DNA of 64,000 nt from Escherichia phage phi92, in the sequence record NC_023693.1; one strand, written 5' to 3'. How positions within the stretch are numbered: the first letter of the stretch is position 1; each line of letters opens with the position of its first letter. Below, piece by piece: positions 44,846-62,463 of this stretch. The position numbers were made by a program, and so were the translations under genes. The notes beneath the pieces are model-generated. The model searched no databases. It was not told the DNA's origin and was given only the letters and a program-made list of their open reading frames with translations.

Positions 44846-44846
44846 A

Positions 44847-45672: not shown

Positions 45673-45872
45673 TATACACCAGCCTTAAGATCAATTAAAG
45701 CCAAAGTTGTTTCAGAGTGTGTTTGCTCGTCTACAGGCGCAGTCATATGATAATACAAAAAATCTTCGGCATCATACCAATCTGATTCTTGACCTTGTTT
45801 CCAACCATCAATGAAAGCATCTTCCATAATGGTTTGCAATTCTTCACGAGTTAAGTGAATATCTTTACTCAT
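45672..45872 (-). CDS. hypothetical protein
   Basis: 66 aa ORF with start/stop coupled to neighbours. Confidence 0.35.
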   Translation of the reverse strand: MSKDIHLTREELQTIMEDAFIDGWKQGQESDWYDAEDFLYYHMTAPVDEQTHSETTLALIDLKAGV

Positions 45873-46105
45873 TACACATTCTCCTCTTTTACCAATTCCA
45901 TCGTTGAATTGTCAAAACCATCTTTAGAAGAATAGGTATAGACAGAACGTAGTTCTCGCAGGACAGTGAATACATTAGGATCATCTAACCAAGCATCCTG
46001 GAGGAGAACATAACGATCTTCATTGTCATACTGAACAGCAATCATAGAACCAGACAGTTTGTAAATTTTAATATTCATAATATATTTCTCCTTAAAGTAG
46101 ACCAC
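45872..46105 (-). CDS. hypothetical protein
   Basis: 77 aa ORF. Confidence 0.35.
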   Translation of the reverse strand: MVYFKEKYIMNIKIYKLSGSMIAVQYDNEDRYVLLQDAWLDDPNVFTVLRELRSVYTYSSKDGFDNSTMELVKEENV

Positions 46106-47195: not shown

Positions 47196-47263
47196 TCAAT
47201 TTCCTCCATATTCTTTAGTAAATGGTGATACCTCTGTACCACCATCATAACACAAATTAAGTA

Positions 47264-48133
47264 TTAAACAAACATATCTAAATAATTTGTAGTAATAAAT
47301 GCTCCATCTGCTTCCAGATTAACATAACCAGTAGCATTAGTGGTTAAGAAATCCAGATCGAAGGACTCTTTAACACCCCGTACCTCAACACGAGAGATAT
47401 CGAATACAGGTAGTGTAACAGCCTCTTCGTGCAATACCGTACCTTTGTAGGTTGCCTTAATGATAAACTTGATATTACCTGTTCCAGCATCATATAAAAC
47501 ACTTTCAAACCCTTTGAGAGTATATTTATCACCAGAGGTGAAGTGCAAAGTTGCTTTGTTTACAGTACGGTTCTTACGAGGAGTTCCTTTCACACGTTTA
47601 TGATCACTACGTCTTTTGCATTTAGGAATGAATACAAACGATACACTCTCAAGAAAGGTATCAACATCAAGGATTTTAATATCCTCTGTTGCAGCAAATT
47701 TTGAAGTAGTTGCATCAAAATGCTTTTCCCTGCGATCATACATAAAGATATCAAACCGATCTTCTAAATCAAACCGATCTTCTAAATCAAACAAATTATG
47801 CAGTTTAATTTCAGAATGCTTGCACATTGCAGCAACCTTAAACTCTTCAAAACGTGGGTGTTCTACAAGTTCTTCAAGTTTTACACCAAAGACAGTATAT
47901 TGTTTCGAAGTTTTTTCTGGTGTTGGCATTACAGAAGCATAATCACCGATTGCGCTCTTAAAGCAAAATTGTTCTTGACCTGTATTTTTACCAACGAATT
48001 TACAGTATTCGTCATCGTGCATACTTTCCTGGGTAGTACCAACAAACTCAAAACCATCTTTATTCTTCTCAAGGATTTCTTGATTAAAGATCCAACCTTC
48101 CAGGCGATATACTTTACCAACTTCTAGTTTCAT
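47264..48133 (-). CDS. hypothetical protein (contains an 18 bp tandem duplication)
   Basis: 289 aa; internal DLEDRFDLEDRF encoded by the tandem repeat at 47751-47786. Confidence 0.4.
   Translation of the reverse strand: MKLEVGKVYRLEGWIFNQEILEKNKDGFEFVGTTQESMHDDEYCKFVGKNTGQEQFCFKSAIGDYASVMPTPEKTSKQYTVFGVKLEELVEHPRFEEFKVAAMCKHSEIKLHNLFDLEDRFDLEDRFDIFMYDRREKHFDATTSKFAATEDIKILDVDTFLESVSFVFIPKCKRRSDHKRVKGTPRKNRTVNKATLHFTSGDKYTLKGFESVLYDAGTGNIKFIIKATYKGTVLHEEAVTLPVFDISRVEVRGVKESFDLDFLTTNATGYVNLEADGAFITTNYLDMFV
47751..47786. repeat. perfect 18 bp tandem duplication (TCAAACCGATCTTCTAAA x2, plus a partial third copy)
   Basis: Positions 47751-47768 and 47769-47786 are identical; in frame within the CDS. 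Confidence 0.8.
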
Positions 48134-48168
48134 CTGTTTCTCCTTCTTATTTAATCTGTATTAAATTA

Positions 48169-48774
48169 TTAACGACGACGTGAGCTACTAAAACTACGTT
48201 TCGACGAAGAATAACTTTTCGAAGACTTACTATAAGAGCTAATAGGGCTTGAGTAAGACTTACGAGCAGAGTAATCACTATTCACTTTCGTTGTTGATGG
48301 GCGTGAATACGTTTGTACACTTTGCTGCTTAATTGTGTTTTGTTTAGTGGTTGTATATGTATTTCCTTGTTTATCATAAAAACTATGCTTTTGTGTTGTA
48401 TATGCTTTACTGTTAGTTGTAGGAGCAGCGTTGTTATTAATAATTGTTGTGTTGCTACCACCATCTCTATAACCGCCACCGCCACTATTACCACTCAACA
48501 TATGACCAAGAAGCATACCTGTAGCAAACTCACCTACACCAGAAGAACCACTGCCGCCTCCTTGCACAACAACTGTTGAAGGTTGTGCAGGTGCTGCTTG
48601 AACAACTTGAGGTGCAGGCTGATTTACATATTGTTCATCTACCATCTGATTTGGTGTTTGTTGGTAACGTTGATTTTGTACATTTTCAGAATCATCACAA
48701 CCTACCAGCAATGCACTACCTAAAACAACTGCAACAATAAAAGATTTAATGTTTTTCATTTGTAACCCTCTCAT
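48169..48774 (-). CDS. putative lipoprotein with low-complexity Ser/Tyr-rich C-terminus
   Basis: Signal peptide with lipobox-like LLVGC; Gly-rich stretch; C-terminal SYSSPISSYSKSSKSYSSSKRSFSSSRRR. Confidence 0.45.
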   Translation of the reverse strand: MRGLQMKNIKSFIVAVVLGSALLVGCDDSENVQNQRYQQTPNQMVDEQYVNQPAPQVVQAAPAQPSTVVVQGGGSGSSGVGEFATGMLLGHMLSGNSGGGGYRDGGSNTTIINNNAAPTTNSKAYTTQKHSFYDKQGNTYTTTKQNTIKQQSVQTYSRPSTTKVNSDYSARKSYSSPISSYSKSSKSYSSSKRSFSSSRRR

Positions 48775-48952
48775 TTAAAGTCTCAACACAATTTTTAAAA
48801 TCCCTAGAGAAACAATACATCTGTTCTCCGTTCCTGTTGATAGTAATTGTATGGTTATCAATATATGTTGTCAAGATAAAAATCAAACAAAACAACCCTA
48901 GAGCAAAACAAATATTTTCAAACAGAATCCAAAGAACACGTAAAACCACCAT
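48746..48952 (-). CDS. small membrane protein
   Basis: 68 aa with an N-terminal hydrophobic helix. Confidence 0.35.
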   Translation of the reverse strand: MVVLRVLWILFENICFALGLFCLIFILTTYIDNHTITINRNGEQMYCFSRDFKNCVETLNERVTNEKH

Positions 48953-48967
48953 CAGATCACCTCAACA

Positions 48968-48985
48968 AAGCCCCCGAAGGGGCTT
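48968..48985 (-). terminator. GC hairpin, possible terminator downstream of terC
   Basis: AAGCCCC-cgaa-GGGGCTT, weak T-tract. Confidence 0.4.
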
Positions 48986-48991
48986 AATGAA

Positions 48992-49969
48992 TTAAGCAAC
49001 AGTCTGGTCTTCTTTTTCAGGGAAGATTAAACTTGCAACAACACCCAACCCAAGAGTACCTAACACAATATACATACTGATCGTCGGATCAATGTGTGCT
49101 GGCAGGAAACTGGCTTTTGCGTGCAGAGTTTCTGCAAACGGGTGATACATCAGTTTTACACCCACAAACACCAGGACTACGATAACTGCTTTCTCCAGAT
49201 GAACCAAATATTTCAGTGCAACACTAAGGACAAAGAACAGAGCACGTAGACCTAAGATTGCACAGAGCATCGAAGAGAACACTAGCAGAGGTTCTTGTGT
49301 CACTGCAATCACTGCTGGAACAGAGTCTACTGCAAAGATTACGTCAACCATTTCCATTACAAACACACAAACCAGAGCCGGAGTTGCTACACGAACACCA
49401 TTTTTGATTGTGAAGAACTTCTCACCATCCATCTGATCAGATACAGGGAACAGCTTACGAACAATGCGAGTAGCCCAGTGTTTAGAGTAATCAACTTCTG
49501 CATCATTATCTCCAGCGAATACCATTTTAGCCGCACAGAAAAGGATGACAGCACCGAAGAAGATATTAACATACCAGCCCAAACTCAACAAGTAAGTACC
49601 TACTGCTACAAACACACCTCGGAAGACAATCGCACCTGCAATACCCCAAAGTAGAATCTTGTGCTGCAAGTGTGTGCTTTTAATACCAAAACTTGCGAAT
49701 ACTGCTACAAATACTACTAAGTTATCTACAGAAAGAGATTTCTCCAACACATACCCACTCAAGAACAAGCTCGCAAAATCAGCACCGTGTTGGAAGTATA
49801 CAAAACCATAGTAGGCTAATGATACCCCAATCCAGAAAATTGACCAGCCAATTGCAGATTTAAATGAAATTTCTTTGTTTTCTCTGTGTCCAAAGAAATC
49901 AATACAAATCGACAAGACTAAAATACCCACTAAAACAACCACATCAATAATTGGGAAACCCAGTTGCAT
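48992..49969 (-). CDS. terC: TerC-family integral membrane protein
   Basis: Multiple TM helices and the characteristic EKSLSVDNL segment. Confidence 0.6.
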   Translation of the reverse strand: MQLGFPIIDVVVLVGILVLSICIDFFGHRENKEISFKSAIGWSIFWIGVSLAYYGFVYFQHGADFASLFLSGYVLEKSLSVDNLVVFVAVFASFGIKSTHLQHKILLWGIAGAIVFRGVFVAVGTYLLSLGWYVNIFFGAVILFCAAKMVFAGDNDAEVDYSKHWATRIVRKLFPVSDQMDGEKFFTIKNGVRVATPALVCVFVMEMVDVIFAVDSVPAVIAVTQEPLLVFSSMLCAILGLRALFFVLSVALKYLVHLEKAVIVVLVFVGVKLMYHPFAETLHAKASFLPAHIDPTISMYIVLGTLGLGVVASLIFPEKEDQTVA

Positions 49970-50046
49970 TCTTTTCTCCTCTTTAATGCGGAGGACAATC
50001 CTCCGCTCTATGTCGTATACTATAAACTGTTTTTAAAGAAAGTCAA

Positions 50047-50295
50047 CTAGTTCAGTTCTGTAATTTTAAGTTTATCTTCTTTGTTAATGATAGGGAAAGC
50101 TACAGCATCACCTACATCATCAATAAAGCAAATAGCAAGACCACCTTCCACTTTGCTAACCTGACCATTAAAGGCGTGATACGGGGCAGGAACAATATCT
50201 CCATCTTCAAGGAGAATAGCCTCATAAACCTTACCAATAGTACAATCACGAGTGTTTTTAAATTTTTCAAGCACTTCAACATTTACTTTACGCAT
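50047..50295 (-). CDS. hypothetical protein
   Basis: 82 aa ORF. Confidence 0.4.
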   Translation of the reverse strand: MRKVNVEVLEKFKNTRDCTIGKVYEAILLEDGDIVPAPYHAFNGQVSKVEGGLAICFIDDVGDAVAFPIINKEDKLKITELN

Positions 50296-50309
50296 ATAAA
50301 GATCCTCTC

Positions 50310-50516
50310 TTATTTGTTAGATTGAAAGATACCACGAAGTACCGCAAGAATGAACGTCACACAGACTACACTCCAAAACGTTACAGGAACATGATGCCAG
50401 TCTAAACCGATAATGTCAATCATATAGTTGTATGCTAAAAGCAGTAGCCAACTAGGGATTAACACAATCAAGAACACAACAATAAAACAACCTAATACTG
50501 CTAAAACACCTGCCAT
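50310..50516 (-). CDS. small membrane protein
   Basis: 68 aa, two hydrophobic helices. Confidence 0.4.
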   Translation of the reverse strand: MAGVLAVLGCFIVVFLIVLIPSWLLLLAYNYMIDIIGLDWHHVPVTFWSVVCVTFILAVLRGIFQSNK

Positions 50517-50525
50517 ACTTTCTCC

Positions 50526-51242
50526 TTATTTCAGTTTGTAAACAATTACATTTAAACCTTTGTTCACTAGAGTTTCTTCGATCATAAGTTTTACAATATT
50601 CCAAGAACCTCCAGCCAAACCACAACCAAGCATTGGTAAACCTACAATTTTACCGCCTGAAGATACAACATCGTCTCCCATACTATCTAACGCATTGTAG
50701 ATAGCTTCATAATTCAGGTCACGCTTACCTTCCTCACGACGACTATAACCATATTGTCCATATAAATTATAAATTGTCAAATTGTTTTCTGTATACTTAG
50801 TAAACGTACCTAATTTTTTATAATCACCACGTTTAGTGGCACAATCTGCTTTAAACGCACCAGGCCACTTGCTTTTAATTTTTGGTGCAATACCACTACC
50901 CATAGTGCAAAAACAGTTACAGCAGTGTGCTATAGCGTCTATATCGCCTCTCTCGGCTGCTGCTAAAAGATCACCGTATACCTCAATGATACCTGCTGGA
51001 TAACTTGTTACAATTTCATCTTCCCAGTACATTTGCTCTACACCACCGATCAGTGCAAAGTTTTGTGTAATGCGATCATCAATATAATTAAGACCTGAAA
51101 CATACACAGCATATTCATCCTGTGCTGTAATACCTTGTACACGAATTCTTAAGACACCATCTTTATCTGTTGCTACACGCCCAAAATCTTTTTCTGTAAT
51201 ATTGGTGATAGGATCTCCGAAAGTCGTCACTTTATTAGACAT
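50526..51242 (-). CDS. macro domain protein (ADP-ribose binding/processing)
   Basis: IDAIAHCCNCFCTMGSGIA and LGCGLAGG resemble macro-domain Gly-rich loops; start taken at the internal ATG (MSNKV...) that overlaps the upstream stop (ATGTCTAA); the ORF track extends to 51359. Confidence 0.45.
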   Translation of the reverse strand: MSNKVTTFGDPITNITEKDFGRVATDKDGVLRIRVQGITAQDEYAVYVSGLNYIDDRITQNFALIGGVEQMYWEDEIVTSYPAGIIEVYGDLLAAAERGDIDAIAHCCNCFCTMGSGIAPKIKSKWPGAFKADCATKRGDYKKLGTFTKYTENNLTIYNLYGQYGYSRREEGKRDLNYEAIYNALDSMGDDVVSSGGKIVGLPMLGCGLAGGSWNIVKLMIEETLVNKGLNVIVYKLK

Positions 51243-52092
51243 AATAATCCCCTTTAACATTAGATTTGTTGATAATGTTGCTTTCAAAAAATTGACGCAG
51301 GAAATCAAAGTTCTCTTTGTATTTTTCAATATTATTGTAACCTTCTGCAAGGCAACCAAAGAACAGTTGTTCTACATAATACAAAGGAAGTTGTGAAAGT
51401 GCAATTTTAAAATCAACTTCGCTTTGACTCATTAGATACTTAATAGGACGAACCAAACATTTAGCATCAGTTTCTTGCTTAATCATTTTAATAAAAGCTG
51501 CCAGGTTATTGATATAGTTGAAGTTAAGTGCAGCTTCGGTGTTGGCTTCTGTACCTTCATACTTTGCAAAGTACAGGAAAAACGTATCGTTTTCAACACC
51601 TTCTTTGTCTAAAATTTCAATAAGTTTTTCTTCGTGTGTACCTGTAATATTAACATCATCAATGAAAATCAGATTTTTATCGCCCCAAAAATCACGATTG
51701 ATAGAGAAAGTATCACCATCGATCAAAGCCTTACGATCTTCTTTGCTAAGAAATCCATAATCATTGATATAGCTCACTTTACGATGAACGATATCCCACT
51801 CTACTGCTTTACCTCCTTTGATAGAGATTAGGTAGTTGAGGTGATCTACAAAATGTTCAGATAACACTGTAGCTGCATTTTTAACATAGTTATATGGAGA
51901 TGGAATAACAACAAAACTTTCATTTACCAGTCGTTCTTCATATTTAGAAAAGAAACTTTCAGCCAGAATGCGTCCCATTCTTTTTGCTGCCTGGTTGCTG
52001 CCAAACTTTAGTTTGGAATAATCTGCAATGTTAAATTTTGCTTCCTTCAGGTTAGTAAAAGTATTAGCAAAATGTTGAATTTGATTACGCAT
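51235..52092 (-). CDS. phosphoribosyltransferase (type I PRTase fold)
   Basis: NLIFIDDVNITGTHEEKL matches the PRPP-binding motif (hydrophobic strand, DD, then TG-T). Confidence 0.5.
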   Translation of the reverse strand: MRNQIQHFANTFTNLKEAKFNIADYSKLKFGSNQAAKRMGRILAESFFSKYEERLVNESFVVIPSPYNYVKNAATVLSEHFVDHLNYLISIKGGKAVEWDIVHRKVSYINDYGFLSKEDRKALIDGDTFSINRDFWGDKNLIFIDDVNITGTHEEKLIEILDKEGVENDTFFLYFAKYEGTEANTEAALNFNYINNLAAFIKMIKQETDAKCLVRPIKYLMSQSEVDFKIALSQLPLYYVEQLFFGCLAEGYNNIEKYKENFDFLRQFFESNIINKSNVKGDYYV

Positions 52093-52741
52093 TAATAAGT
52101 TCCTCTTTTTTAAGTTTAGCCAACAAGTCTTCTGGATTAATAATATGACAGAACTTCATCCCTATGTCAACAGCTTTTCCATCATAAATCAAACTATCTC
52201 CAACGTGTAAAATCTCCTCTGGTGCGAGATCAAACGTTACCATTTCATCAAAAGAGAGTTTAAAAAACCTAGGATCTGGTTTACACAAGCAAAACTCATC
52301 AGAAAAATGCATAAAGTCAAATGGTAATTTTGTCAAGCCAGAATATACAGCTAAGAAACTACCAGGTACAAAATTAGTATTGCTCTTAATACTCAAAGAG
52401 TAGGTTGAACTTAGCTCTTCCAACTTCTTGCAAAGTTCAGGATTCAAGGTTGGAGGATGTTTTATAAACATTGCTAAACAGTCTCTTTTTAACCCATCCA
52501 CTTTATCAAGATCAATGTTCAAACGAGTAGAAAGTGTTACCCAAGCATCCTTAGACGTTCCACAAATGCCTTTTTCTGCTTTTAAATCCAAGAGAGTTTT
52601 TACCTCTTTATATACGGTAGCTGCTTCTACCTCAGAACAAGAGGCATACTCGGCAATAACCTTGTTGCGCTCTTCTGCATACAAAGGGTTAGCAGTAATA
52701 AGAGTATTCCATACATCAAAAGAAATATGCTTAACAGTCAT
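52085..52741 (-). CDS. HAD-superfamily hydrolase
   Basis: N-terminal HISFDVWNTL (motif I-like) and C-terminal HVGDSLIYDGKA (motif IV-like); start taken at ATG 52741 with GGAGGA RBS (the ORF track starts at TTG 52759). Confidence 0.45.
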   Translation of the reverse strand: MTVKHISFDVWNTLITANPLYAEERNKVIAEYASCSEVEAATVYKEVKTLLDLKAEKGICGTSKDAWVTLSTRLNIDLDKVDGLKRDCLAMFIKHPPTLNPELCKKLEELSSTYSLSIKSNTNFVPGSFLAVYSGLTKLPFDFMHFSDEFCLCKPDPRFFKLSFDEMVTFDLAPEEILHVGDSLIYDGKAVDIGMKFCHIINPEDLLAKLKKEELINA

Positions 52742-52910
52742 TTTTAATCCTCCGTCCAAAAGAATATCATCTGCTTAATTTTATTGATTTCTTGATGTAG
52801 TAACTTTCCAGCATGTGATTGATCTTTAATATTGACAGCAAGAATTTCAAGTTCCGTTAGTTTTTCTTGGATAGCTTTATATTCATCATCTGTAAGCATT
52901 TTCTTCCCCT

Positions 52911-53102
52911 TTAGAATGGTAATCTTTGTATGTCACTTATCCCCACACCAAGAAGTCTAGCAATATCCTTATCTAAAAGCAACTCTTTTTGTTCTAAAAT
53001 GTTAATCAGATCTCCTAATACTTCTTTAATGTCACGATCATTTTTAGCAACGTGACCACCTGCCGTATCAACTTTATCTTTAAAAACAAAGTAATGATCC
53101 AT
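52911..53102 (-). CDS. hypothetical protein
   Basis: Start taken at the second ATG (MDHYF...), which has GGAGGG RBS; the ORF track extends to 53114. Confidence 0.35.
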   Translation of the reverse strand: MDHYFVFKDKVDTAGGHVAKNDRDIKEVLGDLINILEQKELLLDKDIARLLGVGISDIQRLPF

Positions 53103-53111
53103 AATACCCTC

Positions 53112-53142
53112 CATATAAATAAAGGAGGCTTTCGCCTCCTTT
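53112..53142 (-). terminator. intrinsic terminator downstream of the AAA+ ATPase gene
   Basis: AAAGGAGGC-gaaa-GCCTCCTTT followed on the - strand by ATTTATAT. Confidence 0.5.
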
Positions 53143-53148
53143 TATCAC

Positions 53149-54309
53149 TTAGTAAGAACGAGCACCAAACACATACTCTGTGTAGTTTTTACGTTCTTTG
53201 TTTTTAATAACAACTTCAATGTTGTTGCCTTTATCATCGGTGAACACAAAGTGATAACCGTCACCACCCATTGTACGGATGTGTTTTTCATCATACGTCA
53301 GCAAGATACGGTCTACACCCCAGTAGTAGTCACCTTCTTCATCTTTGTCTTCTACTGTAACGACCCCTTCCATTTCAGGAAGATGTTCTTCTCCTAGCTT
53401 ATGGTCTACAGCTACAACATAACGATTACCGCTAAACAAACCCTGTGCTGTCATACCGTCAATATCGGTATCTGCCGAAACATCTCCTGTACGATCTACA
53501 CCGTTGACTTTCAGAAGTTTAACTTCTTTTGCAGCATAGCGGTGTTCAGTAATACTGATACCCATTAATGCAAGTGCATCAGAGAATTTGTCATTAGGGT
53601 AACGGTTAAGTTCTTCTACTAATGACTGAACAATATCAAAGTTCAAGTCCACGGAAAGATTATAAAGCGTTTCAAAATCTGGTAAAAAGGCTTTGTTCTC
53701 CAGATTTTTAGCCAGATAGTCATCCATAGTAGCTTTAGGTAGTTTCTTATAGCTAAAGCTGTAGAAAATACGGCTAGGACGATTACGCAAAAATTCTGAT
53801 ACATAACCATCGTTTTTAGTCAATACAAACAGCTTGTCGTAGCCACCTACACCATCCAGCAGGGTAAGCAAGCCATCCTGTGCATCTTTTTCAGCATACA
53901 GTTTATCAAATTCATCGATCATAATCATCACAGGTTGTGTGATTTTAGACATAAAATTGATAAAGCCTTCGCCATTAAAAGCACTACCGATAGGAATAGT
54001 AGGAATACCCATTTCACGAAGAGCAGAAGACAGCATTTTAGCTTGCAAAGTTTTACCGCTACCCTTCGTACCCTCAAGGAGAACACCTGTGTTTTTACCT
54101 TTGCGGCTAAGGAACGTCTTGATAATACGTTCTGATTTATCATCAGTATCACCGTATGTTACTGAAGGGACTTCCATATCGTTTTTAGGATACAGGAAGA
54201 ACTCACCACTTTGAGTAACACCTACACCAAAAGTTCCTGCTGGAATTTCTTCAATATCTGTACCAGACTTCTGACGCAGGAAGATTTGATTGCCGAATAC
54301 TGTAAACAT
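53149..54309 (-). CDS. AAA+ ATPase
   Basis: Walker A GTKGSGKT and Walker B VMIMIDEFD. Confidence 0.55.
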   Translation of the reverse strand: MFTVFGNQIFLRQKSGTDIEEIPAGTFGVGVTQSGEFFLYPKNDMEVPSVTYGDTDDKSERIIKTFLSRKGKNTGVLLEGTKGSGKTLQAKMLSSALREMGIPTIPIGSAFNGEGFINFMSKITQPVMIMIDEFDKLYAEKDAQDGLLTLLDGVGGYDKLFVLTKNDGYVSEFLRNRPSRIFYSFSYKKLPKATMDDYLAKNLENKAFLPDFETLYNLSVDLNFDIVQSLVEELNRYPNDKFSDALALMGISITEHRYAAKEVKLLKVNGVDRTGDVSADTDIDGMTAQGLFSGNRYVVAVDHKLGEEHLPEMEGVVTVEDKDEEGDYYWGVDRILLTYDEKHIRTMGGDGYHFVFTDDKGNNIEVVIKNKERKNYTEYVFGARSY

Positions 54310-54329: not shown

Positions 54330-54800
54330 TTAGTCAGATTCCCAAATGTTGTCTTTCTTAATCCACATTCGTTGATTATCTGAACCTCTATAACGTTTCG
54401 TTGTTGGTTGATTCATATCATACTTACCATCTATCACTATGTCAACCAGTTTTTTAATTTTTTCTGGAATTTCCTCAAAAAGATATCCTGTATATAAGAC
54501 AATATCTTTTTTGTTTCCAAAACAATCTCTTACCTTCTCAAGAACATACTCTACAGTGTCAATGTTCTCTTTGTCAAGAGGTTCACCACCTAAAACTGTT
54601 AATCCTTTAATGAAAGGTCGAGATAAATCTTTCAAGATAAGATCTAATGTTTCAGTAGTGAACTCTTGTCCGTAGTTATACGACCAGGCTTTCTGGTTAA
54701 AGCAGCCACGGCAACCGTGGCTACAACCGCTCACCCACAAAGAGCATCTTACACCGTCACCGTTGAGCATGTCAACAGGTTCATATCCGGCGTAATTCAA
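54330..54800 (-). CDS. nrdG: anaerobic ribonucleoside-triphosphate reductase activating protein (radical SAM)
   Basis: Cys cluster CSHGCRGC (CxxxCxxC), 156 aa, immediately downstream of nrdD with ATGA overlap. Confidence 0.7.
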   Translation of the reverse strand: MNYAGYEPVDMLNGDGVRCSLWVSGCSHGCRGCFNQKAWSYNYGQEFTTETLDLILKDLSRPFIKGLTVLGGEPLDKENIDTVEYVLEKVRDCFGNKKDIVLYTGYLFEEIPEKIKKLVDIVIDGKYDMNQPTTKRYRGSDNQRMWIKKDNIWESD

Positions 54801-55738
54801 AAATGTTTCTCCCTTTCTAGTACCTCTTGCATTTTACCTTTATTATAAGGGCGAGAGTTAGGGGCAGAAAGGTATCCTGACACTCTTCTGATCACAGATA
54901 TGGATTCTTCTTCATGATTACCGCAACTTGGACACTCGAAGCCTTTAGCCGTTGCTTTAAATTCACCATGAAAACCACATTTGAAACACTGATCTACAGG
55001 TTGGTTCACGCCAAAATAAGGAATTTTATTGTAGGCATAATCTACAAGAGTTTCCAGTGCTTGCAAGTTATTTTTAAGGTTTGGTGTTTCTACATAACCT
55101 ATGTTCCCACCATTACTAATTTGTGCAAAACCTTCCTCATAATCCCACTTTTGGAACGGGGTAGTGTGCATCCATACAGGTTGATGGAAAGAGTTTGTCA
55201 AGTAGTCACGATCAATAGAACCAGGATAGCGATCATTTAACGCTTTGGCAAATTTATAGCACAAGGATTCTGCTGGTGTTCCATACAAACTAAAAGCTAA
55301 ACCAGAACGTTCTTTAAATGTGCCACAGATATCCTTCATATATTGAAGGATGTTTTTACCCATTGCTTTTGGATTGGTGTTACCTGGGTATAAAATCTCC
55401 ATAGCTTCTGCTAAACCTACATAACCGATACTAATAGAGGCATAACCACCTTCGAATAGTTTACCAATCTCTTCATTAGCTTCTAATCGAGCTAAAGCCC
55501 CTTCCATAAACAATGTAGGGTTTTGAGATGCTTTGGTATGTCTAATACGGTTAACACGTAGCATATGTGCCTTATACGCCATCTCCATATGTTGTTCCAA
55601 CAGTTCAGTAAATAAGATGCCCTTTTCACGGGACTCTGCTGCAATGATAGGTAAGTTTAAAGAAACTACGCCTAAGTTGAAACGACCATCATATTTTTCA
55701 CCTTGCTCTGTTGCATAGTATGACAAGAAACTTCTACA
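54797..55738 (-). CDS. nrdD: anaerobic ribonucleoside-triphosphate reductase, exon 2
   Basis: Begins CRSFLS... in continuity with exon 1; C-terminal zinc ribbon (CFKCG...CPSCG) and glycyl-radical region RRVSGYL. Confidence 0.7.
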   Translation of the reverse strand, partial: CRSFLSYYATEQGEKYDGRFNLGVVSLNLPIIAAESREKGILFTELLEQHMEMAYKAHMLRVNRIRHTKASQNPTLFMEGALARLEANEEIGKLFEGGYASISIGYVGLAEAMEILYPGNTNPKAMGKNILQYMKDICGTFKERSGLAFSLYGTPAESLCYKFAKALNDRYPGSIDRDYLTNSFHQPVWMHTTPFQKWDYEEGFAQISNGGNIGYVETPNLKNNLQALETLVDYAYNKIPYFGVNQPVDQCFKCGFHGEFKATAKGFECPSCGNHEEESISVIRRVSGYLSAPNSRPYNKGKMQEVLEREKHF

Positions 55739-56017
55739 CATTATGTTCAAAGTGGCTCGCAAGGCCACTCCCGCACCATTACGTGCTGCTGCATGTCACC
55801 ATGCAGATCAGACTATATCTTCATGCTTAAAGCATGTCTACCATTTGGGGTGTCATAGGCTTACACCCTACGCTGCTACATTCATCACAGCTAGTCGTTA
55901 GGCATTTCGTAACAGTACCCCCTTCTTCTGTGTTGGGAGTTCTGTTACGTTTAGCACGGGATTGTCTCGTTGAGAGTTCCCCCGTTTAGGCAGATTTTAC
56001 ATGAGCAGTTATAGTTT
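55739..56017 (-). ncRNA. group I self-splicing intron (ORF-less) interrupting nrdD
   Basis: 279 nt with no ORF separating two in-frame nrdD halves; exon 1 ends in U and the intron ends in G; paired elements present (ACGACTA/TAGTC P7-like, CTGCATG-GTGA-CATGCAG hairpin with GNRA loop, CATGC-TTTAA-GCATG hairpin); resembles my recollection of the T4 nrdD (sunY) intron core. Confidence 0.65.
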
Positions 56018-56875
56018 ACCCATGCTTGTGACGCGACCATCTGAAGATCCTGTAACTTCTTTGTTTAAAGGTACAGAGATAAAATCAGGATAAATGCGTT
56101 CAGCACAACACTCCATTGCCAGTTGCTTCAAATCATAGTTTGGATCGCCAGCTTTCATGTTAACACCATCTTCCAAGAAGAAGATAACTTTAGGAAACAC
56201 AGGAGTTACCCTATCTTTTCCTAATCCTTGTTTGTGCACCATTAGGTAGTTTTTAGTGATCATTCTACCAAAAGCAGAGGTATCCAAACCTAAACTAATT
56301 GTTATAAAAGGTGACTGACCATTTACACTCATTAGAGTGTTCACCTGGTAGATTAAAGTTTGCATTGCATCATAGACCTGTTTATCTACCATACGCATAG
56401 CAATATCATAATCGCCAACATCGGCATATATTTTATTAAAACTTGCTTTAACGTATTGACTAAGCCCAGTATCAACATGTGCACAAGTTTGTCCACCATA
56501 TTGGCTAGAAGCTACTGCTTGAATAATTTGAGTTAGGACAGTAGTCGCTACACCGATAGATTTTGGTTTTTCAATATGTGCATTACCAATACGGAAACCG
56601 TTCTCAAGCATATCTTGGTAATTTACCAGGCAACAATTAGTTAAAGGTGAGAGTAAATAATCTAAATCGTGAATGTGACCATACCCACTTTTATGCCATT
56701 CTGCCAGATCTTCCGGTAAAATATGGGTCATTGCCATGTGCTTGCTTAGGATACCTGCTAGTAAATCTCGGTGAGTATTAACAATCATTGCAGGTTTGTT
56801 TGCATTTTCACGAGTAAATTCTTCGGATGTTTGTTCGAGGAATCCGATTACATCCTCATATAGTTTTTGGGTCAT
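56018..56875 (-). CDS. nrdD: anaerobic ribonucleoside-triphosphate reductase, exon 1
   Basis: N-terminal NrdD-like sequence (RDLLAGILSKH, HIHDLDY, TNCCLV, IEKPKSIGVAT); the ORF track runs two codons (KL) into the intron before the stop. Confidence 0.7.
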
Positions 56876-56884
56876 TAATCCTCC

Positions 56885-56917
56885 GTGGAAAATAAAAGCC
56901 AGCTTAATGCTGGCTTT
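56885..56917 (-). terminator. intrinsic terminator upstream of nrdD
   Basis: AAAGCCAGC-ttaat-GCTGGCTTT followed on the - strand by TTATTTTCC. Confidence 0.55.
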
Positions 56918-56964: not shown

Positions 56965-57915
56965 TTAGTCAAGGTTTTTGGTAATACGTGTACAACCGTC
57001 AGAAGTCAAACCGTCAAATTGAGTTTCCCAAGTGCCATGAATATTTCGGAACAATGTTGTTACACCTTTTGGTTCATTAATAATGATTGCCATAACAAGT
57101 TTAGGATCGATAACAGACATAATCTTTTCCTCAATACCCTCTGTAATAACATTATTGCGCACAATATTAATTGCATCTTCTTGTACAGTAAGAACACTTA
57201 CGTTCTTAAGAGTATATACCTGCTGTGTAGTGTAAATGATACGAACATAACTTACAGAACGAGTAGGCACAGGTTTACGCGGTCGGCGAAAACGTGGTTT
57301 TGGTGAAGATTCAGTCTTACTTTCATTTTTTGAATAATACTCCTCAAACAGTTTAGTAAATGTTTTTACATCAACTACAAACCGATCTTTCCGATATGGA
57401 GAATTCTTATGTGCACCATTAATACCACTGTTTTCATCGAAGAAAGTAATGTTTTCTTCAGTTGAATACATTAGATAATGATCTGCATTTTTCCAATGTG
57501 GTTGTGGACAACGAGGATTACAAACGGAAAGCAGATAACTAATATCTTCTTCCGTGGCATCAGTATCCAGGAAACACGTATTATGCACAGTCAGTTGTAC
57601 TTTTTCAGCCATATCTTTTTCTTTATCCTCTTTAGCAAGATATTCAGTACGAATAATCTCCAGAAAATTTTCAGGTGTTACTTCCATAAATGTATATTCA
57701 GGATGAAGTTCCATATATTCAAATCCACAACCATCTAATTGCTGTAGAAAGTTAGGGTAGAAGAACAAATCATTAACACTGTGAATCAGATCATTGATTT
57801 CTGCTTCAGTTGTGTAACCAAAACTCTTGTGAATTGCTTCGTTAAGAATATGCAGGATACCCATCTCTTCTGCTGCTTTTTTAACTTCCAGTTTATTAGC
57901 GTAAAATGCAATCAT
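56965..57915 (-). CDS. hypothetical protein
   Basis: 316 aa ORF; no motif recognised. Confidence 0.45.
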   Translation of the reverse strand: MIAFYANKLEVKKAAEEMGILHILNEAIHKSFGYTTEAEINDLIHSVNDLFFYPNFLQQLDGCGFEYMELHPEYTFMEVTPENFLEIIRTEYLAKEDKEKDMAEKVQLTVHNTCFLDTDATEEDISYLLSVCNPRCPQPHWKNADHYLMYSTEENITFFDENSGINGAHKNSPYRKDRFVVDVKTFTKLFEEYYSKNESKTESSPKPRFRRPRKPVPTRSVSYVRIIYTTQQVYTLKNVSVLTVQEDAINIVRNNVITEGIEEKIMSVIDPKLVMAIIINEPKGVTTLFRNIHGTWETQFDGLTSDGCTRITKNLD

Positions 57916-57932: not shown

Positions 57933-58367
57933 TTAGTTTAAAATTTCTTTTGCAATGGTAGAAGCAAGTTTTCCATCATATTGGTTCGGATACTCTGCTT
58001 TAAGGTGTTTCATCATATCTGGCATTTTCTTGCCTGTCAAGGCAAATTCTTCGGCAATAGCTCGAAGATCATCTTCAGATAGCATTTCTGGTAAATATTT
58101 TTCCAGGGTGGTGATATCACGCATAGCTCGCTCACATTTGCTAATGGAGGCATTAACTTTCTTAAGCGAGTCTAGTTCCTCTTTAGCGTGTGCAATACCA
58201 ATCTTAACAATGTTAATCATAATATCATCTTCTGATTTATTCAGATTTGCCTTTTGAGTACGAGCAAGGTCAAACTCACCAATAATATTAGTTAACAAAG
58301 CAAAAGCACCCTTATCGGTTGTACGTGCTAAGATACGATCTGCTTTCATTTGTGTCACAATAGACAT
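57933..58367 (-). CDS. GatB/YqeY domain protein
   Basis: 144 aa helical protein whose size and sequence pattern (IVKIGIAHAKEEL...EEFALTGKKMPDMMKHLKAEYP) resemble the YqeY family. Confidence 0.4.
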   Translation of the reverse strand: MSIVTQMKADRILARTTDKGAFALLTNIIGEFDLARTQKANLNKSEDDIMINIVKIGIAHAKEELDSLKKVNASISKCERAMRDITTLEKYLPEMLSEDDLRAIAEEFALTGKKMPDMMKHLKAEYPNQYDGKLASTIAKEILN

Positions 58368-58379
58368 TCTATTCTCCTC

Positions 58380-58952
58380 TTATTTGCTAATGATTTGAAT
58401 CTTATTTACAACACGGTTTATTGCCAGTGAAGCCCTAGGCTCCGCAATACCTGTTGCATAGATATAAGGATGACCTTTTGGAGACTCCCTCATACCGAAT
58501 GAACCTAATTCTAAACCATATTCATCCTCTACGTCAACCCCAATATTAGTGGGTACTAAATATGTTTTAACTCCATAATAAGTAGAGAAGAAACAGCGCA
58601 TAGAGTTAGCATACTCTTCAATTGTAGCATCAGGGTAGAACTCAATCAACTCCAATTTCAAGAAAATATTAAAATGGGTATCATCTAAATTTTCTTCTGT
58701 GCGGTAACATGGTGTTAGTGCCATATACGGATTACCTGCTGCAAATTCAAAACCATCCTTCTCCATTTGCAGGAAAGATTGTTCTGCACTAGCTACATAG
58801 TATTTACCGTTAGGATGCCCTAATGGGCGATCCTCTTTATTTTCTGGTAGTGTATACGCCAGTATATCAGCATCCACGAGATATGGAACTTCTAACATTT
58901 GTGCAAATCGACCATAGTAATCAATAGCTTGAGCTATTACTGCAACATTCAT
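58380..58952 (-). CDS. class II aminoacyl-tRNA synthetase-like minimal catalytic domain (AsnA/EpmA-like)
   Basis: CYRTEENLDDTHFNIFLKLELIEFY resembles class II motif 2 (FRNE...H.PEFT..E.Y); VASAEQSFLQMEKDGFE resembles the motif 1 region; Gly-rich C-terminal region. Confidence 0.35.
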   Translation of the reverse strand: MNVAVIAQAIDYYGRFAQMLEVPYLVDADILAYTLPENKEDRPLGHPNGKYYVASAEQSFLQMEKDGFEFAAGNPYMALTPCYRTEENLDDTHFNIFLKLELIEFYPDATIEEYANSMRCFFSTYYGVKTYLVPTNIGVDVEDEYGLELGSFGMRESPKGHPYIYATGIAEPRASLAINRVVNKIQIISK

Positions 58953-59200
58953 GATCGACCTCCATTGCGGAATGCACGTTTAGTAATGTTTGACATAGTG
59001 ATCAAATCTTGAAGCGTCATACCAGGAAAATGCTGTTCAAGAACACCTTCAACAGCGCCTACAATATCTGATAACTCAATAAGTTGCATCAGCTTGCAAT
59101 CTTGATCAATAGCATCTTGAAGTTCATAAAGCTCTTCTTGAATCTTAGCAATAGAACCGTATTTCTCTTTGCTAATCTCCTTCAAATGATACCCTGCCAC
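58949..59200 (-). CDS. hypothetical protein, possible MazG-like nucleotide pyrophosphohydrolase
   Basis: 83 aa helical protein with EELYELQDA...ELSD acidic pattern; weak. Confidence 0.3.
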   Translation of the reverse strand: MAGYHLKEISKEKYGSIAKIQEELYELQDAIDQDCKLMQLIELSDIVGAVEGVLEQHFPGMTLQDLITMSNITKRAFRNGGRS

Positions 59201-59210
59201 TTTAACCCCC

Positions 59211-61985
59211 TTAGTTTACCAGTTTATTTATATCGGGTAAAAGATTTATTTCACCTAAAAAATCACCTTCACCTTCCTCTAACCAACTCTCATATGCTTG
59301 TGCATGATTATAGTTACCATCAAAAGAATCTGCAACAAATTTTTCTACAGTTTTTCGAGATGTGCCAGCGCCAAATACACCAAGTTTAATACCATTGATC
59401 GGTAAAGTGGTGCTTGTTGGTACTTTCTCTGTTGCAACACGGTTGATATCTATAATCTCCTGTACGGTTGTGTTCCATTGTAAGCATTTAACACAACGGG
59501 TATGCGCTACATACAGTAGGTTTCGCTCTGCCTCTTCCAGTCCTACCCATTCACCAGTCTTTTTATCATAGTTGGAAGGAAAATCATTAGCAACAATAAC
59601 CTGATCCCACTCCAAACCTTTAGACTTGTGTGCTGTAGTCAGTGTGACTTTTGCTGTAGGAGAATTTCTATGCGTTCTAAGTGTATGTGCTATAGTGTTC
59701 GCCTTACCAGAAACTACGATGTTTAACAAGCGTTTAGCATCTGGATCAGCCTCTGCACACTCAACAAATTCATTCCAATCTGCGTAAGGTAATACAGTTT
59801 CATGTTTTACTTTCTCAATATCTCCTCTCCGAAGAGCATTAACACTATCTACCATAGAGATAAAATCCCTGGTATCTACGTTAATAATAATTTCTTCCCC
59901 ATTTGCAATACGATCCATTGCCTCCATAAGCAAGGTTAAATTCTTGCGAAAGATGATAGTGTAAGGTTTTGTATAGTCTACAACATCTGATTTGTAGCTA
60001 CCTACTACAGTATCAAAGCCTTTACCAACCAAAGGATGACGCAAAGGTTCTTTATCGCTTAAAATCATATTGGCAATGTTTGCCACTTTGGGGCCAAAAC
60101 GGAAGCAAGCAGTTAATGGAAGCTCTGCCCCATACTTAGCTGTTTCAATCATCATATTAGAGCTACCTCTAAATTGATAAATGCAGTTGTGGCTAAGAAT
60201 TTCATTGCCAAAGAAGTTAGCAGTATCCTCTACTTCAATATCATAATAGATACCCTCACTATCTACAATGTCCACAATCTCTTCTGCCGTTACAGTATCA
60301 CCATCTTTTACCAACACAGACATGCCTTTAAACAAACCCGCTGCCGGAATTAAGTTATATTTGGCAGTGTCTACAGAGGACATGCATTCTTTTAAAGATG
60401 CAAACGGAACTATTTCAAGGATCTTTTGTGCAAAACTCAATGCTTCACGATAAGAATTGAAATACTTACGTACACGGTAACGACCTTCCAATTTAGCAAC
60501 ACTTACGCTTACACCTGCTTTAATGAGTGAAGCATAGATCGGCATTTCACTTTCTGTCCACTCAAAACTGACTTGTGTTCCTTTACAACCTTGTGCTCGC
60601 AAAGTCACTGTTAACATTTTTCTTTCATCTACTGCACAATTGATGCTGTGCCAATGTGGATAAGCAAAATGATAGTCTTTATCCTCTAAAAGTTTAAAAC
60701 CATTCTGTCCGAATTGTTCAAAGATGTTATTGATCCTTTCTTGATTAATGCCGCGTGAACTTGCTTCAAATACACAAGTAGGAATGCCATATTGTAAACT
60801 GTATGCCATTTCTTTTTCCATAGCAGCTTCGCGATTTTCAACAATGTCCAACACCCATAATTTCTGTGCTTTTTCAGAACGTGTACGTTGCCCCAGTTTA
60901 GAAAAACCTTCTTTATCATCGAATTTGTTAGTGATCCCTACTCGGAAACCTAAATCTTTCCTCCACATTAGGTATACCACCATCTGGTCATCTTTCAGAA
61001 CATAGGATGAAGCCCAAATACGATGGTTATGTGTCATATCTAAAGTTTTACCTGTAGCAGTAATAATATTCCTACCTTTTGTACGTGTAGATAAAGTTTT
61101 ATTTGTTACTTTTCTAAATGTAACTTTACCATTAGAATAAGACTCTACCTTATCACCGATTTGCAGGTCTTTCATTGTAACCTGACCATTCTCGGTGTTA
61201 AGTACCGTGTTTTCCGACACACATTGGAATTCATCGCCCACTACCACAATTTGTTTTGCAGATTTAGCATTTCGCAGAATAGACAAGAATGCAGGGTTAA
61301 CATCCTGGAATTCATCACCAAAAATAATATCATAACCAAGATCAGCACCAGACAATTCAAACAATTTTACATAGGTGTCATGCGTCATCAAAGTATCTGT
61401 ATTAGGATCAATGCGCTCTCGCCACAATTGTTTTGCATACTTAACTACTTCTGTAATTAGTTTGTGTTCGTTAATACCTTTTCTTTTAATATCTGCAAGA
61501 TGTACACTAGGAAAATGTTTACGGCTGATAAAAGGATCATCCGAAAATTCAAACTTACCTACGGTTTGCTTGATCATTAAACCGATCATAGCACGAGTTA
61601 AAAGTGTTTTCCCTCGTTTATCAATAAGATTATTAATCTTAAATTTCTTTGCTATCTCGCTACCTGTACCTGCAACGTTAACATACTGTCCTTCTGGTCG
61701 TGACAGTTTTGCACGTAAACGATGATCCAGGAATTGATAGCAAATAGAATGCAATGTACGGCATTCTACATTTAGTGGCATCTTACGTCGTGCTTCTTCT
61801 GCCATGCTTTTATTGAAAGCTAAGTAAAGAATGCGATCTTCTGTACTGTTAGCCAGCAAATAAAGTGTTGACGTTTTGCCTGATCCAGATTTAGCTTGGA
61901 TAGTTAAAAAGCGATGGTCTGGAAAAGCCTCCTTAATAGCTGTTTGCTCTTCTGTTGGAGTGAAGCTCAAATCTTTCTTAGCCAT
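59211..61985 (-). CDS. SF1 DNA helicase (UvrD/Rep-like), intein-containing
   Basis: Walker A AKSGSGKT, motif II IFGDEFQD; motif III split as VVGDEFQ / CIYQFRGS by a 346 aa insertion; start taken at ATG 61985 (MAKKD...) next to the upstream stop (the ORF track starts at 62024). Confidence 0.65.
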   Translation of the reverse strand: MAKKDLSFTPTEEQTAIKEAFPDHRFLTIQAKSGSGKTSTLYLLANSTEDRILYLAFNKSMAEEARRKMPLNVECRTLHSICYQFLDHRLRAKLSRPEGQYVNVAGTGSEIAKKFKINNLIDKRGKTLLTRAMIGLMIKQTVGKFEFSDDPFISRKHFPSVHLADIKRKGINEHKLITEVVKYAKQLWRERIDPNTDTLMTHDTYVKLFELSGADLGYDIIFGDEFQDVNPAFLSILRNAKSAKQIVVVGDEFQCVSENTVLNTENGQVTMKDLQIGDKVESYSNGKVTFRKVTNKTLSTRTKGRNIITATGKTLDMTHNHRIWASSYVLKDDQMVVYLMWRKDLGFRVGITNKFDDKEGFSKLGQRTRSEKAQKLWVLDIVENREAAMEKEMAYSLQYGIPTCVFEASSRGINQERINNIFEQFGQNGFKLLEDKDYHFAYPHWHSINCAVDERKMLTVTLRAQGCKGTQVSFEWTESEMPIYASLIKAGVSVSVAKLEGRYRVRKYFNSYREALSFAQKILEIVPFASLKECMSSVDTAKYNLIPAAGLFKGMSVLVKDGDTVTAEEIVDIVDSEGIYYDIEVEDTANFFGNEILSHNCIYQFRGSSNMMIETAKYGAELPLTACFRFGPKVANIANMILSDKEPLRHPLVGKGFDTVVGSYKSDVVDYTKPYTIIFRKNLTLLMEAMDRIANGEEIIINVDTRDFISMVDSVNALRRGDIEKVKHETVLPYADWNEFVECAEADPDAKRLLNIVVSGKANTIAHTLRTHRNSPTAKVTLTTAHKSKGLEWDQVIVANDFPSNYDKKTGEWVGLEEAERNLLYVAHTRCVKCLQWNTTVQEIIDINRVATEKVPTSTTLPINGIKLGVFGAGTSRKTVEKFVADSFDGNYNHAQAYESWLEEGEGDFLGEINLLPDINKLVN
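60186..61223 (-). mobile_element. intein (aa 268-613 of the helicase ORF)
   Basis: Begins with Cys (CVSENTVL), TxxH block (DMTHNHRIW), ends ...ILSHN with +1 Cys (CIYQFRG); it sits inside helicase motif III, which excision would restore. Confidence 0.65.
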
Positions 61986-61986
61986 T

Positions 61987-62463
61987 TCAACCTCTCTTAA
62001 TTTGTTTAACAAGCATAGGAACAAAATCTCGTTTTAAAATTTGTTCAATAATATGATCAGGTAGCTGTTGGAAATTATAATTAAAAGCTACTGTCTCACC
62101 TTTAGGTGTTTCTACCCGCACATATAACATGTTACGAAGTTTATCCACTTGTGCTGTATATTCTAAACCATGTAATTGATGTATTGCAAACATCAAATCG
62201 TCAGTTTCAGTTTGGAATCTATCACTTCCTTGCATCAAGGACAAGGTAAAAGGTAGATTTTCCCTAAGAGCCACCTTCTTAGGCACTAGTGAAGGGAAAT
62301 ACTCCCCAATAACTTCCTGTGTAAGCTGAATACACTCTTTTTCAAGCTGGTTTTGTTCCTTGAGTTCACAAACACTTTTTTGTAAAGTGTTAACCTCTTT
62401 TTGCAAAGCTGCTAGTTGAGCACTTAACTTTCTTTTTTGATTACGACCAAAACGTTTAGACAT
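61987..62463 (-). CDS. hypothetical protein
   Basis: 158 aa basic N-terminus with coiled coil. Confidence 0.4.
   Translation of the reverse strand: MSKRFGRNQKRKLSAQLAALQKEVNTLQKSVCELKEQNQLEKECIQLTQEVIGEYFPSLVPKKVALRENLPFTLSLMQGSDRFQTETDDLMFAIHQLHGLEYTAQVDKLRNMLYVRVETPKGETVAFNYNFQQLPDHIIEQILKRDFVPMLVKQIKRG

Follow-up and report, generated by a model that had tools for sequence, protein, structure and literature searches.

The catalytic core of class II aminoacyl-tRNA synthetases (aaRSs) recurs in a set of paralog systems that includes HisZ, EpmA, AsnA, and the amino acid:[carrier protein] ligases, and a pair of genes from Escherichia phage phi92 appears to be akin to them. The pair lies in a stretch of 64,000 nucleotides (nt) of the phage genome (NC_023693.1), referred to here as the window. 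It consists of gp197, for a protein of 83 amino acids (aa; p83 below), and gp196, for a 190-aa protein that resembles an aaRS. EpmA/PoxA (GenX) and AsnA offer the same concept, as class IIb cores that form an aminoacyl-adenylate and pass the amino acid to a non-tRNA acceptor (a lysine of EF-P and ammonia). HisZ is regulatory and requires HisG, whereas the phage cassette has no HisG, and its core appears to keep a complete adenylate site and is nearer to seryl-tRNA synthetase (SerRS). The amino acid:[carrier protein] ligases (Bll0957, PDB 3mey) are also truncated SerRS homologs, but they are about 300 aa long, derive from the methanogen-type SerRS, and work with a phosphopantetheinylated carrier protein; the partner of gp196 instead carries the acidic motif of MazG and HisE. 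SerRS of the bacterial and eukaryotic type is about 430 aa long, compared with 190 for gp196, which lacks the coiled-coil arm and all of the core insertions. SerRS also has no MazG/HisE-like partner, unlike gp196, for which the partner appears obligate.

The pairing also has a counterpart in nucleotide metabolism. In HisIE and MazZ–PurZ, a MazG/HisE-type domain is tied to the enzyme of an adjacent step on the same nucleotide, as may be the case in the phage cassette, but their partner is a cyclohydrolase or an adenylosuccinate-synthetase homolog and never a class II aaRS core. In Z-genome phages, a MazG-like enzyme feeds an ATP-dependent amino-acid ligase. Strongly truncated aaRS cores, known from class II urzymes and viral mini-aaRSs, can keep adenylation and a degree of acylation activity. 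Urzymes are laboratory constructs, however, whereas gp196 belongs to a natural family that is spread across viruses, has its own partner, and is essentially a bare class II core. We know of no natural class II aaRS-type protein that is smaller than gp196.

The reading favored here, with a probability of roughly 0.55, is that gp197 and gp196 encode a coupled two-gene enzyme in which a minimal, SerRS-derived adenylate-forming core would act with a MazG/HisE-type protein. The gene family is already in the databases and some annotators have noticed the resemblance to SerRS or to MazG, so the bare observation is not new. No description was found in the literature of the near-obligate pairing or fusion with a MazG/HisE-like protein, of the cassette as the unit in place of the YqeY neighbor, or of the extreme minimality of a core with a complete active site.

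Linkage and Distribution of the gp197–gp196 Cassette

The DNA of the window is 98–99% identical to that of many coliphages, and the products of the three open reading frames (ORFs) at issue match Phi92_gp195, gp196, and gp197 exactly. An earlier sequence-only reading of the window had singled out the ORFs of gp196 and of gp195, the GatB/YqeY-like neighbor on its downstream side, and both exist where it placed them. The conserved partner is the gene on the other side, p83:

58949..59200, minus strand: p83 (gp197), 83 aa, with a GTG start and a GGGGG ribosome-binding site (RBS)
58949..58963, minus strand: junction of p83 and the aaRS-like gene, with a GGAGG RBS (58959..58963) within the end of p83
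58380..58952, minus strand: aaRS-like gp196, 190 aa, a stand-alone class II core of SerRS type

The stop codon of p83 (58949..58951) and the ATG start of gp196 (58950..58952) share a 4-nt ATGA overlap, and from its sequence the junction looks to be one of translational coupling. The same geometry, an overlap of 4 nt (−4), is the commonest across the 64 IMG/VR loci with a gp196 relative that made up the viral neighborhood set. A p83 homolog is present in 61 of these 64 loci by phmmer, and in 62 plus one N-terminal remnant by a profile hidden Markov model (HMM). It usually stands directly upstream of the core and in a few loci directly downstream. The linkage holds in the reciprocal direction, since a search that began from p83 homologs found the core adjoining or fused in 22/22 loci, and p83 is adjoining or fused in 13 of 15 loci from species-representative genomes. 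The 64 viral loci revealed no further conserved neighbor family of the core, and no HisG-like gene was among the neighbors. Pairwise distances of the core and p83 families are correlated as well (Mantel r = 0.52, 0/2000 permutations), a sign of co-inheritance. The linkage of p83 and the core is thus near-obligate in both directions.

In some viruses the two genes have become one. In three loci (L057–L059) p83 is fused without a linker to the C terminus of the core, and of the 150 top-ranking representatives of core-family clusters 8 are fusions; the fused form also occurs in L094/L096/L101. The catalytic residues of the core and those of p83 are both intact in the fusions that were inspected. 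On balance, the conserved unit is this two-gene cassette, single-gene in some viruses, and not the pair of aaRS-like and YqeY genes. The fused form is concentrated in metagenome-assembled genome (MAG) contigs assigned to Nanoarchaeota or archaea (L094, L096, L101) and in GVMAG giant-virus bins (L057, L059), which may stem from genuine viruses of archaea or eukaryotes or else be phages that were binned wrongly.

At 50% identity and E ≤ 1e-3, the core family falls into 1,594 clusters, and because 1,425 of these reach E ≤ 1e-10 it is sharply set off from cellular SerRS; p83 is represented by 2,635 database proteins. The core is carried by 271 GenBank phage records, which include phi92/phAPEC8-like and phiTE-like myoviruses, Acinetobacter T4-like phages, Caulobacter and Brevundimonas jumbo phages, and Microcystis phages. 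Hosts of the carriers span Proteobacteria and Cyanobacteria, and there are also contigs binned with giant viruses, candidate phyla radiation (CPR) bacteria, and Nanoarchaeota. Among about 185,000 species genomes the core was found in 15, mostly on MAG contigs, and most of these loci are probably of viral origin. The distribution of the cassette is thus almost exclusively viral. Two cellular occurrences look chromosomal and have translation genes as neighbors, which is suggestive but anecdotal. On a 797-kb Saccharibacteria contig (JAXLZU010000001.1; cassette at positions 7684..8489 of locus L100), the cassette sits between rpoC/rpsL/rpsG and fusA of the str cluster, together with NUDIX and AAA_28 genes. 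On an 871-kb Magnetococcales contig, it is near pth, a HIT protein gene, and tRNA-Gln.

Four unannotated records deposited as "Campylobacter phage" (MG065639, MG065645, MG065656, and MG065689, hits H5–H8; host C. jejuni) match this region of the E. coli phage with 98.6% identity over the full 2 kb, which suggests mislabeled hosts or contaminating coliphages.

A Bare Class II Core and its MazG/HisE-Like Partner

The databases give gp196 inconsistent identities. It falls into phrog_4806, labeled "histidyl tRNA synthetase," and no curated model of Pfam or NCBIfam matches it above threshold; the sub-threshold matches are to tRNA-synt_2 and 2d, NCBIfam (serS included) gives no match, and Pfam tRNA-synt_2b is matched by 1 of 39 family members (E = 0.21). 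For p83, too, NCBIfam has no family above threshold, and PADLOC finds no defense-system match for gp196 or p83. A family profile built from the 39 sequences is more informative, finding class II synthetases exclusively in the PDB, with Aquifex SerRS as the best match (E = 1.1e-4; domain score 24.4 bits, independent E-value 1.9e-4) over an alignment that spans motif 1 to motif 2. AspRS ranks second, but a spurious match to its OB-fold domain raises that score, and its catalytic-domain match is just 12.9 bits. In hhalign, the family aligns with E. coli SerRS at 88% probability (E = 2.9e-6), residues 14–148 corresponding to SerRS 186–344.

The AlphaFold2 (AF2) model of gp196 (mean predicted local distance difference test [pLDDT] score 94.6, predicted template-modeling [pTM] score 0.88) has the antiparallel beta-sheet of the class II fold. 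A Foldseek search with the model returned the catalytic domains of SerRS and PylRS with a probability of 1.00, and 185 residues superimpose on the SerRS core. Identity is 15–19% to SerRS and 9–11% to HisZ/HisRS. The class II fold that the sequence-only reading had expected is thereby borne out by both model and profile; the AsnA/EpmA-type kinship it proposed is not, as the closest relatives are SerRS cores. Nearly all of the protein is catalytic core, so that gp196 stands as a bare class II domain of the SerRS kind, with no N-terminal coiled-coil arm, anticodon-binding domain, or other appended domain.

The name of a canonical enzyme does not fit. The alignment begins at about SerRS residue 186 and so leaves no N-terminal arm, the protein is 190 aa long, and the curated models failed, which sets it apart from a canonical SerRS. 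The HisRS/HisZ identity of the PHROG and RefSeq labels would call for a HisRS-type core with a C-terminal anticodon-binding domain, or for a HisG partner, and gp196 has neither. The GenBank names "histidyl" and "seryl tRNA synthetase" are computational, and neither describes a family to which gp196 belongs; as a canonical synthetase of either type it does not qualify.

Some aaRS-like cores carry Cys-rich, Zn-ribbon-like C-terminal tails, which Pfam does not identify. Lineages with added domains include L036 and the ~168-kb phage contigs L020/L032/L087/L088 (proteins P0190, P0200, P0201, and P0253).

The active site of SerRS can be followed through the gp196 sequence:

58872..58913, minus strand: motif 1 region, residues 14–27, GRFAQMLEVPYLVD, with P23, aligned to SerRS GY..i.PP.LV
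58773..58799, minus strand: TxE loop, residues 52–60, YVASAEQSF, from computed alignments to SerRS
58650..58715, minus strand: motif 2, residues 80–101, TPCYRTEENLDDTHFNIFLKLE, with R84, E86, H93, F97, K99, and E101, from the SerRS alignment
58488..58511, minus strand: strand E148-L-G-S151-F-G-M-R155, matched by position to SerRS "rEisScSn"
58428..58460, minus strand: motif 3, residues 165–175, YATGIAEPRAS, with T167 and R173, from hhalign

The peptide that had been taken for motif 1 is the TxE loop; true motif 1 covers residues ~14–27 and includes the motif 1 proline P23, which is conserved in 248 of the 258 diverse homologs used for all gp196 counts. In the TxE loop, S55-A56-E57-Q58 aligns with T-A-E of bacterial and T-S-E-Q of human SerRS, and S55 and E57 are invariant (258/258; Q58, 254/258). 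Motif 2 aligns to SerRS TPC(F/Y)R.E...R.HQF.K.E across a 6-residue gap, such that TPCYR84-x-E86 matches TPCFRSE and H93...F97-x-K99-x-E101 matches R...F-D-K-V-E. R84, F97, K99, and E101 are found in 258/258 sequences, and the E86 position is E or D in 242/258. For motif 3, hhalign pairs GTGlAEPR with GSGLAVGR of E. coli SerRS, a pairing that by itself is not significant and that places G-T167-G-I-A-x-P-R173 against G-S/T-G-L-A-x-x-R; P172 is kept in 256/258. D140, E148, G150, S151, T167, and R173 are each present in 257/258, the sole exception being a gap in one sequence. The likely match of E148..S151 to rE-i-s-S was assigned manually, with the sequence of E. coli SerRS and the order of strands in the AF2 model as guides.

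In class II enzymes, documented roles exist for the motif 2 arginine, the glutamate at +2, and the motif 3 arginine (PMC5919687). By alignment, R84 and R173 are the pair known as "arginine tweezers," which hold the adenylate in these enzymes, and E86 is the conserved glutamate at +2. Relative to SerRS, 6 residues are missing from the motif 2 loop, and once this deletion is allowed for, the SerRS spacings (R+19=F, R+23=E, T+6=R, E+3=S) fit gp196, where F97 is R84+13 and E101 is R84+17. The family as a whole displays the SerRS-type signature of TxE loop, TPCFRxE, F.K.E, E..S strand, and GT/SGLA..R. The remaining conserved residues presumably correspond to T225, E227, E279, E345, S348, and T380 of Thermus thermophilus SerRS, which hold the seryl moiety and Mg2+. 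Judged by its residues, the adenylate site appears complete and catalytically competent.

The partner p83 belongs to phrog_6408 ("unknown function," E = 1.8e-43) and carries an acidic motif, K-x-x-EE-x-x-E followed by 15 residues and then E-x-x-D:

59066..59146, minus strand: p83 residues 19–45, K19 and E22-E23-x-x-E26, 15 residues, then E42-x-x-D45, from conservation in 189 sequences

Across the 189 sequences, Y4, H5, K19, E22, E23, E26, E42, D45, and F77 are invariant (189/189) and R82 is nearly so (188/189). The helices with EExxE and ExxD align with those of HisE (2a7w) and the MazG-like SSO3215 (1vmg). In MazG and HisE, the EExxE...ExxD motif binds metal and the Mg2+-triphosphate; in p83 this function is putative. 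Pfam matches to p83 homologs are to PRA-PH (HisE) in 25 of 35 and to MazG in 5, all sub-threshold, with a best PRA-PH E of 2.2e-4; phi92 p83 itself scores 14.7 bits against PRA-PH, where the cut-off is 21.3. In a profile search of the PDB the top matches are HisE 2a7w (E = 0.03) and the MazG-like 1vmg. The AF2 model (pLDDT 91.2) has an extended N-terminal segment followed by three helices, without the first helix of HisE, and its top five Foldseek matches are all HisE or MazG (probability up to 0.94, yet E ≥ 0.67). With moderate confidence, p83 can be assigned from its motif and predicted fold to the all-alpha NTP pyrophosphohydrolase superfamily as a short member with an apparently intact metal site.

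An acyl or peptidyl carrier protein was considered for p83 and rejected: Ser44 lies mid-helix (helix 36–57 of the AF2 model), it is not invariant (kept in 169/189; Ala, Cys, or Thr in 20/189), and the profile matches HisE/MazG. In the ~168-kb phages, p83 has a ~120-aa C-terminal extension that Pfam does not identify.

Proposed Mechanism and Competing Explanations

Near-obligate linkage, translational coupling, and linker-less fusions lead us to infer that gp196 and p83 would associate physically, with two heterodimers probably pairing up. The likeliest chemistry is aminoacyl-adenylate formation coupled to nucleotide pyrophosphohydrolysis. Through the arginines of motifs 2 and 3, gp196 would grip ATP, and it would turn serine, or another amino acid about as small, into the aminoacyl-adenylate, while p83 would bind a Mg-nucleoside triphosphate and cut its alpha-beta bond. 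More speculatively, the two activities may follow one another on the same substrate, of the adenine-nucleotide type, in the manner of fused HisIE. A single substrate of this kind is preferred because fused enzymes usually catalyze adjacent steps and because the closest relatives of p83 act on modified ATP, and the logic of coupled steps is supplied by HisIE and MazZ–PurZ. An ATP-like acceptor might receive the aminoacyl group from the core on a hydroxyl of its ribose, much as A76 of tRNA does from a synthetase, after which p83 might strip off pyrophosphate in the way that HisE treats phosphoribosyl-ATP. What results could be an aminoacylated adenine nucleotide, or like chemistry could take place at the tRNA 3′ end. 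It is a tentative suggestion that the cassette encodes a previously undescribed viral enzyme that makes or processes an aminoacylated adenine nucleotide, or that aminoacylates or repairs tRNA 3′ ends without a recognition domain.

Several points weigh against the coupled enzyme. The fold matches of p83 are individually nonsignificant (Foldseek E ≥ 0.67; Pfam below the gathering score), and the acceptor of the aminoacyl group is a speculative candidate. The suggested serine-type specificity is drawn from motif correspondence to the serine-binding residues of SerRS (T225, E227, E279, and T380 in T. thermophilus), and the proposed physical interaction of p83 with gp196 from linkage and fusion. 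The literature yields no biochemical or functional study of any family member. Finally, proximity to tRNA genes, the YqeY gene in phi92, and the str-cluster and pth contexts point to tRNA over a free nucleotide.

The last of these points underlies the main rival, a minimalist SerRS, which is possible but clearly the less probable explanation. gp196 would charge tRNA through contacts at the acceptor end, with host or phage tRNASer or tRNAs generally as substrates, and p83 (with YqeY in phi92) would be an accessory, for example in adenylate proofreading or in binding tRNA in trans. A fully conserved SerRS-type active site is what this explanation expects. Several unrelated phage lineages have the cassette embedded in arrays of 3–16 tRNA genes, and 13 of the 64 viral loci have tRNA genes within ≤4 kb, a count that has no genome-wide baseline for comparison. 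The YqeY domain adjoins in phi92, and domains of this type bind tRNA in GatB and in Deinococcus radiodurans GlnRS. The str cluster in Saccharibacteria, pth and tRNA-Gln in Magnetococcales, and the Zn-ribbon-like tails of some members fit as well. However, gp196 lacks the coiled-coil arm with which SerRS recognizes the variable arm of tRNASer, and 6 residues are missing from its motif 2 loop, the part of SerRS that touches the acceptor stem. Conservation of the cassette does not extend to YqeY, and the intact NTP-pyrophosphohydrolase motif of the obligate partner has no obvious part in tRNA charging. Both gp196 and p83 are acidic and without an appended basic domain, yet E. coli SerRS is equally acidic, so net charge and isoelectric point tell nothing about tRNA binding.

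The module proposed by the sequence-only reading, in which aaRS-like, GatB/YqeY-like, and CCA-enzyme-like proteins of phi92 would act together on tRNA, is unlikely. The genes on either side of the cassette form with it, on the minus strand, a tight, co-directional array in the order UvrD-type helicase, p83, aaRS-like gene, YqeY-like gene, 316-aa ORF, and hairpin:

59211..62024, minus strand: UvrD-type helicase ORF, the first in the array
57933..58367, minus strand: gp195, a YqeY/GatB-tail domain protein of 144 aa, with a GAGGAG RBS
56965..57915, minus strand: 316-aa ORF, the last of the array
56895..56917, minus strand: strong terminator-like hairpin at the close of the array, a 9-bp stem followed by TATTTT, a pattern match from a consensus scan

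The consensus scan found no terminator-like site on the minus strand from 59200 to 56965, and the array is apparently co-transcribed, judging from this layout. gp195 follows gp196 after a gap of 12 nt, and its identification as GatB/YqeY-like was correct: it passes Pfam YqeY (PF09424; 30.3 bits, where the gathering cut-off is 27; E = 5.3e-7, residues 38–143) and falls into phrog_1460 (E = 1.5e-36). The spacing, the shared direction, and the tRNA-related relatives of both domain types speak for a module. Against it, YqeY adjoins the core in only 2 of the 64 loci (L002/L003), both ~98% identical to the window, and the ~150 phage records with YqeY-like genes mostly have no cassette nearby; in CcrBL9, the YqeY-like gene and the cassette are ~44 kb apart. 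No CCA-adding enzyme was found in a scan of 44–54.8 kb of the window, the rest of which was not scanned for one. With a distribution of its own elsewhere, YqeY was rejected as a conserved cassette partner, a place that belongs to p83, and gp195 is a lineage-specific neighbor outside the cassette. The observation behind the sequence-only reading is confirmed and its interpretation partly supported, but aaRS-like plus YqeY as a conserved module is largely refuted.

About equally improbable is a noncatalytic role for gp196 in the manner of HisZ for HisG, in which it would respond to uncharged tRNA, ATP, or an amino acid as ligand and control p83 as a hydrolase, with, for example, an alarmone or a noncanonical NTP as the nucleotide substrate. 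The two ATP-grasping arginines and the whole predicted adenylate site are ~100% conserved over the 258 sequences, from which catalysis is expected rather than mere ligand sensing, and gp196 is closer to SerRS than to HisZ/HisRS in sequence identity.

Least probable of all is nucleotide or DNA hypermodification by MazZ–PurZ logic, in which p83 would convert a (d)NTP to a (d)NMP and gp196 would join an amino acid to it for entry into phage DNA, a proposal that borrows the chemical logic of the Z-genome phages and notes that the phi92 cassette lies among nucleotide-metabolism genes (NrdD/NrdG, helicase). It is countered by the lack of other modification genes conserved beside the cassette, by a SerRS-type pocket that suits an alpha-amino acid adenylate and not base chemistry, and by the report that phi92-like phages are "exceptionally susceptible" to restriction-modification systems (PMC8594841), which speaks against a protective DNA modification.

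Surrounding Genes and Significance of the Cassette

Other elements of the window stand apart from the cassette. The 316-aa ORF is labeled "ribonucleotide reductase" in PHROGs (phrog_15930, E = 4e-185), a label without curated support because Pfam, NCBIfam, and PADLOC give no match. nrdD, for a class III ribonucleotide reductase, is split by a group I intron of ~275 nt that matches the full length of Rfam RF00028 (70.6 bits, with a gathering cut-off of 50; E = 1e-17) and holds no endonuclease ORF:

55789..56063, minus strand: group I intron in nrdD
56009..56875 and 54797..55768, minus strand: nrdD exons

The relative PaulScherrer has an uninterrupted nrdD, and the exon sequence that directly follows the insertion shows a few differences (TGTAGAAGT compared with TGCCGTAGT), which looks like co-conversion. 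The UvrD/Rep-type helicase at the head of the array is 937 aa long. Its PaulScherrer homolog is annotated as containing an intein (~347 aa); the VivaForever homolog is merely 1737 nt long and for that reason is taken to lack the intein. An intein is annotated in the PaulScherrer DNA polymerase too. The lineage bears several self-splicing elements in replication and nucleotide-metabolism genes.

A Ter-type gene cluster occupies 44051..54309 on the minus strand:

44051..44845, minus strand: vWA–TerF-like
46092..47195, minus strand: TelA
48992..49969, minus strand: TerC
50526..51359, minus strand: macro domain
51235..52092, minus strand: ComF-like PRTase_3
52085..52759, minus strand: HAD hydrolase
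53149..54309, minus strand: AAA ATPase

This cluster, here carried by a virulent coliphage, resembles Ter-associated neighborhoods predicted to make a nucleoside-like metabolite.

For the cassette itself, the practical consequence concerns annotation. About 270 phage genomes name the gene contradictorily ("histidyl," "seryl," or plain "tRNA synthetase"), and it is better read together with the overlooked 83-aa ORF. gp196 is also a natural test of the minimum protein needed for class II aminoacyl-adenylate chemistry, and perhaps acyl transfer, with a bearing on urzyme models of aaRS origins. Testing should be cheap, with two small soluble proteins and culturable coliphages (phi92 and the BASEL phages Bas60–62). 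The spread of the cassette over very different hosts implies that its target is something every cell has, be it tRNA or adenine nucleotides. If the coupled enzyme proposed here is real, it would add a new branch to the chemistry derived from aaRSs, at work in phages with diverse hosts and possibly in archaeal and giant viruses.

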